A stretch of 64,000 nucleotides of DNA from an uncultured Acidobacteriota bacterium (lineage in GTDB: Bacteria > Acidobacteriota > Thermoanaerobaculia > Multivoradales > UBA5704), in contig OY969474.1 of NCBI GenBank assembly GCA_963700145.1, positions 1,440,001 through 1,504,000 on the forward strand. Reading direction: 5' to 3'. How positions within the stretch are numbered: position 1 is the stretch's first letter; each line of letters opens with the position of its first letter. Position numbers and translations under genes: made by a program. This document shows positions 3,931 through 62,215 of this stretch, in pieces. The notes under the pieces were generated by a model. That model saw only the letters and a program-made list of their open reading frames with translations. It had not been told where the DNA came from and did no database searches.

Positions 3931-4863
3931 TCACTTTTCCACGGGGACCGCCAACCGTTCGAGGACGCGGGCCGCCCTCGGCAACTCGCGGGGCGGCGTT
4001 TTCCACTCTCGACCCACCTGTGCCTGATGTTTCCCGGGACTGCTCCAGTGGACGAAGACCCAGTCCACCGGGTCGAGCCAGCCCTTGTGGGGCGGCCGGG
4101 CGGACTGCCTCAGGCTGGCGACGAGGCCGCCCTCGAAGCGGACCACATGCAGCGGCAGGAGCAGCTTCTCCGGGAACGGCCCGGCCGTCGCGCGCGCCTT
4201 GAGCTCCCGGCGCAGCAAGGGTCGTTCGGCGAGTAACCGGCGCAGCCAGCGGAGAGAGGCGAAGTAGTAGGGGCTGCGGCTGGTGCCGGGGAGCTCCAGC
4301 TTCTCGGCCGCGACGATCTGTCCTTTCTCCCGCCGGTGCGGCAGGCCGAGGACTTCGCGGACGAGCGCGGCGGCGGCTTGGTTGCGTGGGAGCGCGGTCT
4401 TCGTGCGCAGGCCGGGGGCCCAGGGCTCGCCGTCGGGCGAGGCGAGCGCGTTGTAGAGGCGGAGGGCGCGGCCGAGCCAGTCGAGGGCGAGGTTCCTGAG
4501 CTTGGGGCGGGGGTGCTCGAGGGTGGCGCAGAGGATGGCGGTGTGGGCTTCGAGGTGCATGCCGGCGTGGGGGTCCGGGCAGAGGCACTCGGTGCGGTAC
4601 ATGCCCTGCTCGCGCTCCAGCTCGTAGAGCTTGACGACCTGGGCGAAGGCCAGGCGGCGCTCGGCGGGCTCGACCTCGGCCAAGAGCACCCGCCAGAGCC
4701 AGCTGGCGGCGAGCATGGCCTGGTAGTTGGCGGTCTCGGCCCAGGTGCCGTCGTCGAGGCCGAGGATCTTGCGGAGGTAGGGATCCTGGCGGGGGTCGGA
4801 GACGACGCGGCCTGCGAAGCAGGCGGCGAGGCGGGCTTGGAGGCCGACGTGGGCGGGTTTCAT
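3931..4863 (-). CDS. Hypothetical protein, 310 aa
   Basis: Protein-like composition with GC3 bias; no family recognised; contains CLCPDPHAGMH. Confidence 0.7.
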   Translation of the reverse strand: MKPAHVGLQARLAACFAGRVVSDPRQDPYLRKILGLDDGTWAETANYQAMLAASWLWRVLLAEVEPAERRLAFAQVVKLYELEREQGMYRTECLCPDPHAGMHLEAHTAILCATLEHPRPKLRNLALDWLGRALRLYNALASPDGEPWAPGLRTKTALPRNQAAAALVREVLGLPHRREKGQIVAAEKLELPGTSRSPYYFASLRWLRRLLAERPLLRRELKARATAGPFPEKLLLPLHVVRFEGGLVASLRQSARPPHKGWLDPVDWVFVHWSSPGKHQAQVGREWKTPPRELPRAARVLERLAVPVEK

Positions 4864-4888
4864 GGGTGGCTTCGGGGTCAGGAAACGA

Positions 4889-4910
4889 CGGGGGGCGTCA
4901 CCGCCCCCCG
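4889..4910 (-). terminator. Hairpin downstream of the 127-aa gene
   Basis: CGGGGGGCG-tcac-CGCCCCCCG, followed on the minus strand by TCGTTT. Confidence 0.5.
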
Positions 4911-4923
4911 CGGTGCGCTCAGC

Positions 4924-5307
4924 CTACTTCGTCGCCGCCGGAGTGGGCTCCGACGCCGGTGCCGGCGGCGGGGTCTCGGGCTTCTTCGTGCGCCGCCCGC
5001 CGCGCGGCCGGAGGCCGAACTCGTGGAGCACCTTGTTCTTGGTGCCAAACTGACCGCGCAGGGCGGCGTCGGCCTGGCTGCGCAGCTCGACGCCGCGGGC
5101 CTCGGCTCGCCGGCGCTTCTCGTTGGTCTCCCGCAGGCGCGCGGTGTAGATCTCCTGCTGGGTCTCGAGGCCCCGGGTCTCCGCGAGCCAGGCTTCGAGG
5201 TCGGTCTGCAGCGGCTCGAGAAGCGGGATCTCGGGCAGGCGCGCCTTGAGGTTGGTGCTCAGGATGTCCATCGCCGCGATGAGGTTGATCAGGTTCCGGT
5301 CAGGCAT
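4924..5307 (-). CDS. Small coiled-coil protein with basic/Pro-rich tail (FGxKxxxLxEFG motif)
   Basis: SD AAGGAG upstream; helical heptad pattern; tail RPRGGRRTKKPETPPP. Confidence 0.8.
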   Translation of the reverse strand: MPDRNLINLIAAMDILSTNLKARLPEIPLLEPLQTDLEAWLAETRGLETQQEIYTARLRETNEKRRRAEARGVELRSQADAALRGQFGTKNKVLHEFGLRPRGGRRTKKPETPPPAPASEPTPAATK

Positions 5308-5392
5308 GGGGGCTCTCCTTCAATCCAGACAGTGGACGAAAGCGCCAAGCGGAGGATTCCGCCGGCGCGGGTGAGAGGGAGGGGCGGCGGGG

Positions 5393-5665
5393 GAAGCCTC
5401 GCCACGCGTTGGCGAAGCTTCCCTTTTCAAGAGCGAAGCTTCCCCACCGGAAAGCGAAGCTTGGCTGTTCAAAGGGGAAGCTTTCCCGTCCGAGAGCGAA
5501 GCTTCGCTTTTCAAAAGACAAGCTTCGCCATCGGAAAGCGAAGCTTCGCCTTTCAAGAGGGAAGCTTCGCCAACGGAAAGGGAAGCTTCGCTTTTCGAAG
5601 GTGAAGCTTCGCCATCGGAAGGGGAAGCTTCGCTTTTCAGAGGGCAAGCTTCCCCAGTCGGGAGG
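5393..5665. repeat. 21-bp-period tandem array 1: 13 units, palindromic core GAAGCTTC
   Basis: Cores at 5393, 5414 ... 5645. The 13-bp linkers alternate between GCTTTTCAA-type and GCCATCGGA-type. Confidence 0.97.
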
Positions 5666-28054: not shown

Positions 28055-28112
28055 GCGCGGTGCGGCGCCGCGGCCGTGACAGACCCATGCGCCGGTCCGT
28101 ATGCTCCGCCGC

Positions 28113-31100
28113 ATGTTTTCGATCCGCCGTACCCTGACGTCCTGCTGTCTGCTCGCCTTCTTCGCCGCCCTTCCTCTGGCGGCGCAGCCCCTTCCCTGCC
28201 GGCCGTGCGCCGGCCTGCGCGTCGAGACGGCGTTCGCCGGCGAGGCGCTGGAGGCGTTGGCCGGGGCGCTCCCGGCCGGCGCCGACGCGACCGTCGTCCT
28301 CGCCTGGGAGGCGCCGCTCGACGGCTCCGCCGACTTGGCGCCCCTCGAGCGCGCGGCGGCCCTGGCGCCCCCTCCGGCTCCCGTCCCGGCGGCCGCCCCG
28401 CCAGCGCCCGCCGCCCCGGCGCCGCGGCTCATCCCCTGGCTCACACTCCCCTTCCGCACCCCGTCGCCCCTGGCGCAGCAGGCGGTGCGGCTGCAAGGCG
28501 AGCTGGACGCGGTGTCGCGCCTGGCCGCCGCGGCGCCGCCCGGCACCTTCTTCCAGATCGCCTGGCGGCCGGAAGGGCTCGAGGCGGCGCCGCTCGACTT
28601 CGCCGAGTACGCCTTCCTGCTCAAGCGGGCGGCGGTGGCGGTGACCGGTGCGCGACCGGACGGCCGGGTGGTCACCCAGCCTCTGCGCGCCGGCGCCGAG
28701 GCGGTCGAAGCGCTGTACGCGCAAGAGGTTGCGGCCTACCTCGAGGCGGTCGCGGTGCTTCCGGGCAGGCCCGAAGCGGTCGCGGCCACCGCCGAAGCGG
28801 TCGAGCGGCTGGACCCCGGGCGGCTGGTGGTTCTGGACGCGCCGCCGCTGCCGGACGATCCGCAGACTCTCCCGGCCGAAGCGGCCCGCTGGGCCGTCCG
28901 CGGGGTGTCGCTGGTCCTGTTTCGGGTAGAAAGGGAACAATCGGAGCCCGCGGAAGGCTCCGAAGGGGCTGCGGAAGCTTCCCCGGCGCCTCCGGAAGCT
29001 TCCGCTCCTGCTCCGGAAGCTTCCGTACCTCCTGCGGAAGCTTCCGCTTCGCCTCCGGAAGCTTCCGTACCGCCTCGGGAAGCTTCCGCTTCACCTCCGG
29101 AAGCTTCCGTACCTCCCCGGGAAGCTTCCGCTCCGCCTCCGGAAGCTTCCGCTCCCCCCCGGGAAGCTTCCCTACCCGCTCCGGAAGCTTCCGCACCGTC
29201 TCCGAAAGCCTCCGCGGCGCCCGGGGAGCCTCTCTCCCTACCTGAATCCTTCTTCCAGGCCCTCACCCCCCTCTCCGTCCTGGCCCGGGAGTTCGCCGGA
29301 GATCTTTCTTACGATCCCACTTCGTCTCCGCAAGGCTCCGGCGAGGCCTGGGCCTTCGTGCGCGGGGAGGACCTCGCCCTCCGGGTCATCGCCGTCACCC
29401 CCGCCGCGCCGCAGGTCGACCTCCGCTTCCCCGACCCGCTGCTCGGCAGCCCGGTGATCGTGGACGCCCCGACCGGCCGCACCGTCGAGGCGGCGGGCAA
29501 CCGGGTGGGGGGCGCCTACGTCGTCCGCCTCTACCAGCCCCGCCCGGTGACCCTCCTCCGGCTCGAGCGGGTGGAGCAGGTCGAGCTCGAGGCGGTCAAG
29601 GAGAGGGTCACCGTCGCCGGCGAGCGGGAGGTCCCCGTCGAGGAGATCCTCCGCCGCCTCCAGGCCTTCGAGGACGCCCAGGCGCGCCGCCTCCTCAACT
29701 ACCGCGCCGTCAACACCACCCACCTCCGCTTCCAGGTCGGGGCCAGCTCGCAGAGCTTCGAGGCGACGCTCCAGGGGCCGTTCTTCTGGACCCCGGCGAG
29801 CGGCGCCGACTGGGTCTGGCAGGACCTCTTCGTCAACGGCGTCCGCTGGCGCGCCAAGACGATCCCCGAGATCCCGCTGGTGCAGCCGGAGAAGGCGGCG
29901 GCCATGCCGCTCGAGATCCACTTCACCCGCCAGTACCGCTACCGCCTGCGCGGCAGCGAAAAGATCGACGGCCGCGACGGCTGGGTGGTGGACTTCGCCC
30001 CGACCGCCCTCGAGACCGGGGAGGGGGGCAAGCTCTACCAGGGCACTGTCTGGGTGGACAAGCAGCTCTCCTCGCGCCTGCGCACCCGCGCCGTGCAGGT
30101 GGGGCTCGAAGGGGAGGTCATCTCGAACGAGGAGACCCTCCACTACACGCCGATCGACGCCGAGGGGCGGGCCGCGCCCTGGGGGGCAGCGGGGAGCTTC
30201 GTCCTGCCGCTGCGCATCCTGGCGCAGCAGATCCTCTCGGTCGTCAACGCGGCGACGGTCGTCGAGCGCGAGACCAACCTGACCGAGGTCAAGGTCAACG
30301 ACCCCGGGTTCGAGCAGGCGCGGCAGGCGGCCGCGGAGTCGGACCTGACGATGGTGCGCGACACGCCGCAGGGGCTGCGCTACCTGGTCAAGGACGAGGC
30401 GACCGGCGAGCGGGTGGTCAAGGAGGGCTTCGACAGCAACAAGCTGTTCCTCCTGGGCGGCCTCTTCTACGACGACGCCCTCGACTTCCCGCTGCCTCTG
30501 GCCGGCATCAACTACTTCTCCTTCGACTTCCGCGGCACGGGCCAGCAGGTCAACGCCTTCTTCGGCGGCGCTCTCCTGACCGTGGACGTCGCCGAGCCGC
30601 GCCTTTTCGGCAGCCGCTTCGACGCCGGCGCCGACTTCTTCGCCCTGGCGGTGCCGCTCGCCGACACCGTCTGGCGCGACGACGACGAGGTGCACGAGGA
30701 GGAGGTCGAGACCCGCTCGGGCAACGTCGGCTTCAAGCTCGGCCGGCCGCTCGGGAACTTCGTCAAGGTCTCGTCGGAGTACACGCTCGCCCACCACGAC
30801 TACGGCACGACCGACAACACCATCGCCGGCTTCGTCCCCCCCGGCAACCACCTGACGCACTCGCTGCAGCTCAACGGCCGCTTCGCCCGCGCGGGCTGGC
30901 GCGTCGGGTTGGAGGGGAGCCTGCACCGCCGCTCGGAGTGGGAGCCCTGGGGGCTGCCGGGGAACCCCGACTACTTCGCCGAGGCGCAGGACTACTCGCT
31001 CTGGGGGGCGACGCTGTCGAAGAACTGGTACCTGCCCTACTTCCAGAAGATCGGCGCCGAGGTGAACTACCTGGGCGGCTCCGACCTCGACCGCTTCTCG

Positions 31101-31421
31101 AAGTACGAGTTCGGCTTCTTCGGCGCCAGCCGCGTCCACGGCTACCAGAGCGACCGCGTGCGGGCGACCGAGGTCACCGCCGGGCACCTCTCCTACGGCT
31201 TCGAGATCGGCGAGGCCTTCCGCCTGGAAGCGGTGGCCGACGCGGCGCTCGCCACCGACGAGGACGCCGGCCTCGACCAGGAGCTGCTCGCCGGCATCGG
31301 CGTCAACGGCACCTTCCTCGGCCCCTGGCAGACGGTCGTCAACCTCGACCTGGGCGTCCCGGTGCAGGGGCCGGACGACGGCTTCGTCCTCTACGTCGTG
31401 TTCCTCAAGCTCTTCCGATGA
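28113..31421 (+). CDS. Large secreted/outer-membrane multidomain protein (MucB/LolA-like middle, probable C-terminal beta-barrel)
   Basis: Signal peptide; YRYRLRG...WVVDF.P...YQGTVWVD; amphipathic beta strands ending VVFLKLFR. Start 28113 or 28101. Confidence 0.7.
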   Translation: MFSIRRTLTSCCLLAFFAALPLAAQPLPCRPCAGLRVETAFAGEALEALAGALPAGADATVVLAWEAPLDGSADLAPLERAAALAPPPAPVPAAAPPAPAAPAPRLIPWLTLPFRTPSPLAQQAVRLQGELDAVSRLAAAAPPGTFFQIAWRPEGLEAAPLDFAEYAFLLKRAAVAVTGARPDGRVVTQPLRAGAEAVEALYAQEVAAYLEAVAVLPGRPEAVAATAEAVERLDPGRLVVLDAPPLPDDPQTLPAEAARWAVRGVSLVLFRVEREQSEPAEGSEGAAEASPAPPEASAPAPEASVPPAEASASPPEASVPPREASASPPEASVPPREASAPPPEASAPPREASLPAPEASAPSPKASAAPGEPLSLPESFFQALTPLSVLAREFAGDLSYDPTSSPQGSGEAWAFVRGEDLALRVIAVTPAAPQVDLRFPDPLLGSPVIVDAPTGRTVEAAGNRVGGAYVVRLYQPRPVTLLRLERVEQVELEAVKERVTVAGEREVPVEEILRRLQAFEDAQARRLLNYRAVNTTHLRFQVGASSQSFEATLQGPFFWTPASGADWVWQDLFVNGVRWRAKTIPEIPLVQPEKAAAMPLEIHFTRQYRYRLRGSEKIDGRDGWVVDFAPTALETGEGGKLYQGTVWVDKQLSSRLRTRAVQVGLEGEVISNEETLHYTPIDAEGRAAPWGAAGSFVLPLRILAQQILSVVNAATVVERETNLTEVKVNDPGFEQARQAAAESDLTMVRDTPQGLRYLVKDEATGERVVKEGFDSNKLFLLGGLFYDDALDFPLPLAGINYFSFDFRGTGQQVNAFFGGALLTVDVAEPRLFGSRFDAGADFFALAVPLADTVWRDDDEVHEEEVETRSGNVGFKLGRPLGNFVKVSSEYTLAHHDYGTTDNTIAGFVPPGNHLTHSLQLNGRFARAGWRVGLEGSLHRRSEWEPWGLPGNPDYFAEAQDYSLWGATLSKNWYLPYFQKIGAEVNYLGGSDLDRFSKYEFGFFGASRVHGYQSDRVRATEVTAGHLSYGFEIGEAFRLEAVADAALATDEDAGLDQELLAGIGVNGTFLGPWQTVVNLDLGVPVQGPDDGFVLYVVFLKLFR
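28953..29233. repeat. 21-bp-period GGAAGCTTCC array inside the CDS (EASxPPx heptads)
   Basis: 11 perfect cores at 28974...29184 plus degenerate flanking units at 28953, 29205 and 29226. Confidence 0.96.
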
Positions 31422-51866: not shown

Positions 51867-52016
51867 GAGGCCCAACCAGTCGAACTGCGACGGCGAACAG
51901 CCGGCGGTTATCCCTTTCGTCGGTCGGTTGACGGAGCGAGGCTCGGGAGGGATCCCAGAGAGGCGGGAGCTACGGTAGGAACGGCTGAGGATAAGGGAGC
52001 AAGCGTTCCGGACATA

Positions 52017-52247
52017 TCCTCAGCGGCTGATACGACGTCCTCAGCCGCTGATACGACATCCTCAACGCCTGATACGACATCCTCGGCGGCTAATACGTTG
52101 TCCTCAGCGGCTAATACGACCTCCTCAGAGCTTCCGGATACATCCTCAGCGGCTGATACAACATCCTCAGGGGCTGATACGACATCCTCAGGGCCAGATA
52201 CCGCATCTCCAGGCCCTGGGGAGACGTCCGGAGGCCCCCCGACGACC
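52017..52247. repeat. 21-bp-period array, consensus TCCTCAGCGGCTGATACGACA
   Basis: Nine clear and two degenerate units; internal palindrome TCAGC-N-GCTGA. Confidence 0.93.
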
Positions 52248-61036: not shown

Positions 61037-61069
61037 AGCCCGCGAAGGCTGTATCCTTGTAGCGCTCCG

Positions 61070-61897
61070 ATGACGCCTAGATTCCTCTGCCTGCTCGCGC
61101 TGGCGCTCGGCGCCGTGCTTCCCGCCGCCGCGCAACCGCCGCCGGCGGAGAAATCCGCCGAACCCGCCCGCGCCGAGGTGCTGGTCCTCGGCACCTACCA
61201 CATGGCCAACCCGGGACGCGACATCTTCAACATGCAGGCCGACGACGTGCTCGCGCCCAAGCGCCAGGCCGAGATCGCAGAGGTCGTCGCGGCCCTCAAG
61301 CGGTTCAACCCCACGAAGGTCGCGGTAGAAGCCGACGTCGGCGACGACCGCATCCCCAAGCGCTACGCCGACTACCTGGCCGGCACCTACGAGCTGACGC
61401 GCAACGAGACCGAGCAGATCGGCTTCCGGCTCGCCAAGGAGCTCGGCCACAAGACCGTGTACCCGGTGGACGTCGAGGGCGACTTCCCGTTCCAGCGCCT
61501 CGCCAACTTCGCCAAGGCGAGCGGCCGCTCGCCGGAGCTCGACGCGATGATGGGCGAGGTCGGCGGCATCGTCGAGGCGCAGGGCGCGTATCTCGCCTCC
61601 CACACCATCCTCGAGACGCTGCTCTACATGAACGCCGACGACAAGGTCGCCGCGGACGTGGGCTTCTACTACCGGCTGGCGCACTTCGGCGAGCCCGGCG
61701 ATTGGGCCGGCGCCGACCTGGTCTCCGAGTGGTTCCGGCGCAACATGCGCATCTACACCAACGTCGTGCAGCTCGCCGACTCTCCGAACGAGCGCCTGCT
61801 GGTCGTCTTCGGAGCGGGGCACCTCGGCTGGCTGCAACAGGACTTCGCCAGCAACCCCAACCTCCGCCTGCGCAAGCTCGCCGAGTTCGCCAGGTAA
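61070..61897 (+). CDS. Secreted DUF5694-like (TraB/Tiki-fold) protein
   Basis: Signal peptide; VLVLGTYHM, VAVE, NETEQIGFRLA, W..RN, VFGAGH. Confidence 0.8.
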   Translation: MTPRFLCLLALALGAVLPAAAQPPPAEKSAEPARAEVLVLGTYHMANPGRDIFNMQADDVLAPKRQAEIAEVVAALKRFNPTKVAVEADVGDDRIPKRYADYLAGTYELTRNETEQIGFRLAKELGHKTVYPVDVEGDFPFQRLANFAKASGRSPELDAMMGEVGGIVEAQGAYLASHTILETLLYMNADDKVAADVGFYYRLAHFGEPGDWAGADLVSEWFRRNMRIYTNVVQLADSPNERLLVVFGAGHLGWLQQDFASNPNLRLRKLAEFAR

Positions 61898-61914
61898 GGC
61901 CGCTTTTCGAGAGG

Positions 61915-62187
61915 GAAGCTTCCCTACCGGAAAGGCAAGCTTCGCTTTTCAAGAGGGAAGCTTCGCCTTTGAAGAGGGAAGCTTCGCCATCCAAAAGGGA
62001 AGCCTCGCTTTTCAAGAGGGAAGCTTCGCCATTCAAAGGAGAAGCTTAGCTTTTCAAAAGGGAGGCTTCCCTACCCGAAGGGGAAGCTTCGCTTTTCAAA
62101 GGTGAAGCTTCCCTTTCCGAAGGCGAAGCTTCGCTTTTCAAAAGGGAAGCTTCCCTTTCGGGGAGGCAAGCCTCCCCTTGCGAGGAA
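61915..62187. repeat. 21-bp-period tandem array 2: 13 units, core GAAGCTTC
   Basis: Cores at 61915, 61936 ... 62167; linker types and orientation match array 1. Confidence 0.97.
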
Positions 62188-62215
62188 TGTCCTCGCCAGG
62201 GGACGAGGACTGTTA

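Follow-up and report, generated by a model that had tools for sequence, protein, structure and literature searches.

What keeps thirteen short palindromes in a row, each two turns of the DNA helix from the next, beside a small gene of a bacterial chromosome? The question is raised by a tandem repeat, here called array A, in a stretch of 64,000 nucleotides (the window; positions 1,440,001 to 1,504,000 of contig OY969474.1) from an uncultured member of the Acidobacteriota. The source genome (G000) belongs to the class Thermoanaerobaculia and is a single contig (C1) of 5.46 Mb with 71.5% GC; G002, G003 and G004 are genomes of the same genus. Array A can be assigned with high confidence to a lineage-restricted superfamily of 21-bp-phased palindromic tandem arrays, of which it is a non-coding copy. 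With equal confidence, it is paired with a small gene, P0001, in a duplicative cassette of about 0.8 kb, of which the array forms the upstream half. The three features are as follows.

Window 5392-5664, no strand assigned: array A, thirteen 21-bp units with a conserved 12-bp dyad, GSGAAGCTTCSC, and linkers of types a and b in alternation.
Window 4924-5307, minus strand: P0001, gene for a 127-aa protein, with its start 85 bp from array A.
Window 4883-5656, minus strand: duplicated cassette of gene and array, about 0.8 kb, which recurs at 81-84% identity and in different contexts in two same-genus genomes.

Structure and conservation of array A

The thirteen units of array A keep the 21-bp register with no indels, as a first-pass annotation of the window had stated. 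AAGCTT is present in twelve of them, also as described there, the exception being the first unit with AAGCCT; 8 of the 13 contain the exact 8-mer GAAGCTTC. The linkers alternate perfectly (babababababab), and the 42-bp higher-order period that had been proposed is real: Tandem Repeats Finder (TRF) gives the 42-bp period a score of 298 with 81% matches, and the 21-bp period a score of 98 with 61% matches. Type a linkers are CTTTTCAAAAG-like and themselves palindromic; type b linkers are CCAYCGGAAAG-like. In the class of arrays to which array A belongs (class I, below), two cores and the type a linker between them form a 31-nt perfect palindrome, as read off the sequence. In the whole window the 8-mer is expected 1.0 times and occurs 27 times, a count reached in none of 100 shuffles.

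A coding reading of array A was rejected, as third-position GC of the class I consensus is only 3/7 in each forward frame and not high as in the rest of the genome. Matches of the array in Rfam are limited to microRNA look-alikes (37 bits against a gathering score of 92); these are sub-threshold and were rejected as an effect of the palindromes. A promoter scan returned no sigma-70-like sites.

Conservation was tabulated per position, as the first-pass annotation had suggested. Among 76 class I units, conservation is 87-99% at positions 3-9 (AAGCTTC) and 96% at the symmetric flanking pair G21/C11, so that the core extends to the 12-bp dyad. When the units are read in the 42-bp register, conservation is 93-96% in the core and 72-81% in the linkers. 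The earlier statement that linkers vary while the core is fixed thus holds for the better-kept core; the linkers, however, do not vary freely.

AAGCTT is scarce in the rest of the genome. Outside arrays there are 222 sites against 469 expected under a maximum-order Markov model (observed/expected 0.47), the third lowest value of 64 palindromic hexamers. Arrays occupy far less than 1% of G000 but contain approximately 146 of its 368 AAGCTT sites. Core hexamers of other array families are not notably depleted outside arrays (AGATCT 0.72, AGCGCT 0.84, GGTACC 0.88, GATATC 1.10). Two further palindromic hexamers, CAGCTG (0.28) and TACGTA (0.29), are also strongly depleted outside arrays in G000. 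Together with the scarcity of AAGCTT, this hints at restriction pressure, past or present, or at site avoidance.

A superfamily of phased arrays

The family was predicted to be dispersed, and it is: GAAGCTTC forms 17 clusters in G000 and is also found in related genomes. Phase-breaking indels, which the first-pass annotation had proposed to look for in other copies, are rare; of the gaps between neighbouring AAGCTT sites within clusters, 131 of 133 genome-wide are exact multiples of 21. Three classes of AAGCTT cluster were distinguished: the linkers are AT-rich and partly palindromic in class I and GC-rich in class II, and the third class has GAAAGCTWTCC cores. Class I consists of six arrays, including array A and array C. 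These six are confined to C1:137640-1502152, a span of 1.36 Mb on a chromosome of 5.46 Mb (p 0.006 by permutation, not corrected for the 10 families tested). No regional clustering was seen for the other core families, a pooled test gave p 0.19, and clustering is not taken to be a general trait of array families.

Two relatives of array A had been noticed in the window, a sister array 56 kb away and a third array with the same core inside a coding sequence (CDS). Both were found again:

Window 61893-62186 (TRF 61901-62158), no strand assigned: array C, the sister array, with core and linker types as in array A.
Window 28972-29215, plus strand: array B, with core as in array A and GC-rich linkers, in frame inside the CDS at 28101-31421.

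Array C lies 56.5 kb from array A and has 10 AAGCTT sites in phase. It begins 4 bp past the stop of a DUF5694 gene, with convergent genes on either side. The region 61038-62215 of the window, which comprises the 3' part of the DUF5694 gene and array C, is missing from an otherwise collinear G004 contig with flanks 96% and 84% identical. Array B contains 11 exact GAAGCTTC cores and reads in this frame as (P)EAS-type heptads with atypical codon usage. Third-position GC is 0.80-0.99 on both flanks, which are coding-type and in the same frame, and 0.43 within the array; array B is an in-frame array with foreign codon usage.

AAGCTT is one core among many. Periods of 21, 42, 63 or 84 bp are found in 120 of the 270 strong tandem arrays of G000 (non-overlapping TRF arrays with a score of at least 80), and these have many different palindromic cores. 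Of these 120 arrays, 29 have a consensus with a perfect 12-bp palindrome, as opposed to 4% of shuffled consensi; arrays of other periods show no such enrichment (16%, with 13% in shuffles). Families were assigned by explicit core motifs, which leaves 71 of 121 arrays unclassified; automatic clustering, by consensus or by shared 9-mers, lumped unrelated cores together. The first-pass annotation overlooked this superfamily of more than 100 arrays with other palindromes, as well as its coupling to a small gene and the fact that phase can persist without selection.

The triple-core GAAGCTTC pattern occurs in every one of 5 genomes of the genus; outside the genus, 3 of 20 genomes of the same family have it, and none of 16 from other families of the order does. 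A scan across phyla with one genome per species also located GAAGCTTC at 21-bp spacing, with other linkers, in Sandaracinaceae, Gemmatimonadota, Holophagales, Spirochaetales, Verrucomicrobiales and one cyanobacterium; Thermoanaerobaculia account for 23 of the 80 stretches listed, out of 109 found. Among the arrays in other phyla, some occupy many loci within a single genome, and in some the linker contains GTCGAC as a second palindrome. As the search was led by the motif, these arrays may have been drawn by chance from a large pool of 21-bp arrays; alternatively, they may reflect a wider phenomenon.

With the exception of array B, the arrays are intergenic. Those between two called genes are in convergent (10), tandem (16) and divergent (4) contexts, and 11 arrays begin within 17 bp of a stop codon.

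The P0001 gene and its cassette

P0001 is a predicted coiled-coil protein. Its AF2 model (pLDDT 92.9) has a short N-terminal helix, one helix of 60 residues and a Pro-rich basic tail. It matches no family in Pfam or NCBIfam and has no PADLOC match; PHROGs gives only a weak match to phrog_46 (E 0.068), and a tblastn search of plasmids and phages gave none. Protein atlas matches are confined to 'hypothetical protein' clusters of Acidobacteriota. There are 299 relatives at E<=0.001 among 1.84 billion representative proteins. The gene was found in 5 of 5 genomes of its family and in none of 196 other genomes of the class Thermoanaerobaculia.

In a DNA search of four same-genus genomes, P0001 and its array align together as a single block at 5 loci in G003 and G004. 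The ends of the cassette are sharp, and over 822 bp the two G004 copies are 83% identical. The array has 13 units in some cassette copies and 14 in others; in one copy the phase slips by 4 bp. A further element of the cassette, read from the sequence, lies between array A and the P0001 start and is kept in the G003 and G004 copies:

Window 5349-5362, no strand assigned: small GC hairpin, GCGGA-GGAT-TCCGC.

The association of gene and array is not limited to this cassette. G000 has 16 P0001 paralogs; 13 have an array of 21-bp period 50-200 bp upstream, one has a weak array, two have none, and no paralog has an array downstream. Of 121 array regions, 12 contain a P0001 gene; none of 121 random regions does. 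Upstream arrays are also seen at 10 of 24 P0001 loci in other genera, with a period of 20-22 bp or multiples thereof and with other palindromes; in one of these genera, none of 7 P0001 loci has an upstream array.

A multi-copy module with an exchangeable array slot

Several P0001 paralogs are part of a multi-copy module of about 6 kb. It contains an XRE-type HTH gene, a TPR protein gene, unknown open reading frames (ORFs), the array, P0001, and ORFs of 137, 315, 247 and 204 aa. Two examples in G000 and the remaining gene of the array A locus are listed below.

C1:3384000-3393500 (L030): module copy.
C1:3102000-3110500 (L029): module copy.
Window 3931-4863, minus strand: P0002, a 310-aa ORF downstream of P0001, without a Pfam family and related to the 315-aa gene of the module.

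The copy in the window has only the array, P0001 and P0002, and as P0002 is related to the 315-aa gene, the array A locus looks like a truncated module. Scans of nine module proteins, P0001 and P0002 against Pfam, NCBIfam and PADLOC gave only HTH_3, TPR and DUF6119/TIGR04141, with no defence, phage or plasmid family. A small ORF upstream of the module arrays had been considered pterin dehydratase-like; this was not borne out, as it matched no Pfam family.

Module copies are 78-92% identical in DNA sequence on both sides of the array block. Homology between them breaks exactly over a block of about 300 bp, which extends from the stop of the same-strand upstream ORF to the P0001 ribosome-binding site; the array fills this gap. 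Each module copy has a different palindrome array, with an unrelated core, in this slot.

Array dynamics

Arrays gain and lose whole 21-bp units, are overwritten by arrays of the same family, and swap blocks for unrelated cores upstream of P0001 paralogs. Changes in unit number are seen in soil-metagenome contigs over the array A locus, where array lengths differ by 84, 84, 210 and 126 bp, plus one difference of 127 bp. Overwriting is seen at 1196 kb. The array there has a positional orthologue in G004 (right flank 91% identical), but its sequence is 92.5% identical to array A in inverted orientation and does not resemble the orthologue in this way, which indicates conversion between arrays. 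A degenerate end unit, GGAAGCCTCGCCACGCGTTGG, is common to array A, the array at 1196 kb and one G004 copy.

Presence or absence also varies within the genus. The array at 603 kb, together with a SymE_toxin-like ORF beside it, is missing at the orthologous site in G002, G003 and G004. The array at 275 kb has an 82-bp DNA remnant from just past the P0001 3' end alongside it. Synteny breaks at all four class I arrays whose surroundings were compared, a count that has no matched control.

Possible functions of the arrays

Of the readings considered, the best, though a tentative one, is that array A is a phased, dyad-symmetric cis element read by a putative protein factor. Each unit would be a dyad-symmetric site. 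Repeated every two helical turns, the 12-bp palindrome would place about 13 sites on one face of the DNA, where a dimeric factor could bind cooperatively; the bound factor might then set transcription or local DNA structure at the P0001 cassette. A protein-docking lattice of this type is favoured because the 12-bp dyad is better kept than the linkers, the motif is depleted elsewhere, the array has a fixed position upstream of P0001, and dyad symmetry recurs in unrelated cores. The first-pass annotation had listed a protein-binding lattice among its proposals, and it remains, tentatively, the best single one.

Several observations weigh against such a lattice. A reader protein was not found: the cores did not co-vary with either P0001 or the XRE proteins. 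In the three P0001 pairs of highest similarity (76-83% identity) the cores are unrelated, the sole pair with the same core type is only 63% identical, and two nearly identical XRE proteins are paired with different cores. Neither protein therefore looks like a sequence-specific reader, and the evidence argues against that role for both. A Foldseek search of P0001 against the PDB gave no match at E<=0.001, and no DNA-binding fold is recognisable. At least 15 core families would require as many readers. Neither a P0001 gene nor a detectable fragment of one lies near approximately 100 of the 121 arrays, and a search for pseudogene fragments near these solo arrays added nothing to the 12 intact genes. 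The arrays also look dispensable, as array C is absent from G004, the array at 603 kb is absent from three genomes, and array B sits in a CDS. Finally, the fixed 21-bp phase needs no selection, because recombination in unit register preserves it; the earlier argument that slippage alone explains fixed spacing poorly did not take this into account.

The arrays may instead be selfish or neutral palindromic minisatellites which spread by slippage, unequal exchange and conversion. Hairpin-prone units would amplify themselves with no host function, and the link to P0001 would be the result of co-duplication in the cassette. Arrays would persist where they are harmless, namely in intergenic gaps, at gene 3' ends and, when in frame, within disordered linkers of proteins. 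This had also been proposed in the first-pass annotation; it is nearly as well supported as the lattice, and it is ranked second, as possible but on balance rather unlikely. It accounts for block replacement at the P0001 slot, and phase conservation comes free. It is in line with the differences in presence among genomes of one genus, the synteny breaks, the variants in unit number and the conversion at 1196 kb. The in-frame array B with its low third-position GC, the starts close to stop codons, the IS-type (insertion sequence) ORFs beside several arrays and the failure to find a reader point the same way. What it does not explain is that the core is better kept than the linkers, that AAGCTT is depleted outside arrays, and that dyad symmetry recurs in unrelated core families. 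Nor does it explain the position of the array, which is upstream of P0001 in 13 of 13 cases and never downstream, in a slot used across genera. The preference for a protein-docking lattice lies in these points.

A role in RNA is doubtful. Here the arrays would be elements of the type of repetitive extragenic palindromes and bacterial interspersed mosaic elements (REP/BIME), transcribed in operons or 3' untranslated regions, where strings of hairpins act as exonuclease barriers or attenuators and structure alone matters. The intercistronic position of the module arrays fits this, as do the gene contexts counted above. Near-identical modules with different palindromes fit a structure-only rule. 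The tandem-hairpin RNA of the first-pass annotation is possible on energy, since the array folds strongly on both strands (z -8.25 and -10.25) and class I has its long core-linker-core palindrome; however, GGAAGCUUCC by itself forms a stem of only 3 bp. A crude test of mismatches in dyad pairs is unfavourable: the P0001 sense strand has fewer G.T mismatches (8) than A.C (24) or other mismatches (30), and a sense hairpin predicts the opposite. Terminator-like sites are at chance level (2 against 1.9 expected), and array A has no same-strand gene upstream. More doubtful still is a stronger version of the lattice, in which the arrays are at least 15 orthogonal 'address labels'. Each palindrome family would dock its own sequence-specific dimeric factor, and a swap of the ~300-bp block would re-address near-identical modules to other regulators or chromosomal compartments. 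If true, this would be a modular, exchangeable cis-code without a described bacterial counterpart.

It is very unlikely that the arrays are decoy or epigenetic clusters for an AAGCTT-specific restriction-modification or methyl-reading enzyme. The depletion of AAGCTT and its concentration in arrays are what such a decoy, also suggested at first pass, would lead one to expect, but this does not generalise to the cores of other families. The conserved site is 12 bp and so wider than AAGCTT, and there is no RE_HindIII match, though control genomes were equally silent. Least probable of all, to the point of being barely credible, is a pair like the type III toxin-antitoxin systems, with the array upstream of P0001 encoding a processed antitoxin RNA. 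A tandem repeat followed by a small gene does resemble the toxIN layout. Against this, P0001 has no ToxN/AbiQ-type match in Pfam or PADLOC, and it is modelled as a long coiled coil, not a nuclease fold; near-identical P0001 proteins are paired with unrelated arrays, and the majority of arrays lack a gene of this kind in their vicinity.

Should proteins read the arrays, this lineage would possess a large system of phased DNA lattices with interchangeable specificities, tied to a family of orphan proteins; this would be relevant to bacterial chromatin and to the way in which multi-copy modules are distinguished. Selfish arrays would be a clean natural example of palindromic minisatellites that, in a 71% GC genome, evolve in concert, convert one another and are replaced in blocks, with the same repeat serving as a protein linker as well. 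On both views, the arrays are of practical use as strain-level markers of the variable number tandem repeat (VNTR) kind and likely assembly breakpoints in metagenome-assembled genomes of soil Acidobacteria.

Comparison with known repeats

REP/BIME elements of enterobacteria and pseudomonads are extragenic, palindromic and dispersed; they are arrayed with alternating linkers, lie at operonic or convergent sites, vary among strains, and are targets of IS elements. They are the closest known repeats in genomic niche. The units of array A are likewise extragenic, palindromic and clustered, with strict alternation of a and b linkers. They differ in having a short perfect dyad at a rigid 21-bp period, in the presence of at least 15 unrelated core families in one genome, and in lacking a GTAG or CGTC head. 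The Y1 transposase associated with REP (RAYT; PF01797) has no match in G000, whereas 6 of 14 control genomes were positive.

Plasmid centromeres and iteron arrays adjoin the gene for their binding protein; examples are F sopC (12 x 43 bp), R1 parC and the 22-bp iterons of R6K. These are closest in architecture, as the arrays here have 10-14 sites at two helical turns, a 42-bp higher-order unit, and a position directly upstream of a small gene. However, the arrays here are chromosomal and number more than 100, and the neighbouring protein does not co-vary with the site. No partition ATPase/NTPase or Rep initiator was found among the neighbours scanned (the nine module proteins, P0001 and P0002).

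Bacterial minisatellites of the VNTR/MIRU type are dispersed between genes and change by whole units. The arrays resemble them in having head-to-tail units that vary in whole-unit steps (13 or 14), and a period of 21 is compatible with the reading frame. What sets them apart is the dyad symmetry of their cores, the alternation of linkers, and the replacement of whole blocks at a conserved slot.

BrickBuilt of Porphyromonas gingivalis is the closest published dispersed minisatellite. It is described as a species-restricted minisatellite or miniature inverted-repeat transposable element, with a tandem 23-nt unit without spacers, always intergenic, and about 19 dispersed copies per genome; the element includes leader and tail subunits that have inverted-repeat ends, and promoters are found in it (PMC4596501). 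Compared with BrickBuilt, the arrays here have many core families and a linked gene. They have no sigma-70-like promoter match, and no inverted-repeat ends were found at them, although no systematic search for inverted ends or target duplications was made.

Clustered regularly interspaced short palindromic repeats (CRISPR) were rejected, as there are no unique spacers of about repeat length; the linkers are 9-13 bp long and of two recurring types. The first-pass annotation considered the arrays undescribed, and searches of the literature on tandem repeats of Thermoanaerobaculia and Acidobacteria and on 21-bp palindromic intergenic repeats yielded no description of them among the papers listed. 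Array A is a real, non-coding, lineage-restricted feature, best filed as an extragenic palindromic repeat array. Its unusual properties are the rigid two-turn phase, the coupling to a small gene, and the wholesale exchange of array blocks at a conserved slot.

Minor observations

IS-type ORFs adjoin several arrays. Identical 281-aa IS-type ORFs, each preceded by the same 60-bp sequence, are found at the ends of two arrays of different core families (G000 C1:2946137-2947352 and 5033496-5034710); this fits a role of arrays as insertion targets of IS elements.

The SymE_toxin-like small ORF beside the array at 603 kb (PF08845, E 3.5e-11; L037:1105-1260, G000 C1:602904-603047) has 16 tblastn copies in G000. 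At six of these copies a 21-bp array follows within 400 bp downstream, and no two of the six arrays have the same core. The ORF is also multi-copy in G002, G003 and G004.

Several class II arrays start 2-17 bp past a stop codon. The longest GAAGCTTC array, at G000 C1:1581836-1582375 (about 26 units, 90% matches), begins 2 bp past the stop of a 785-aa ORF.

The window contains a fourth 21-bp array, at 52016-52213 (TRF score 199), with an unrelated unit, ATCCTCAGCGGCTGATACGAC. Approximately five other sites in the genome have arrays with a related palindromic core of the GTATC..GATAC type, grouped with it by eye.
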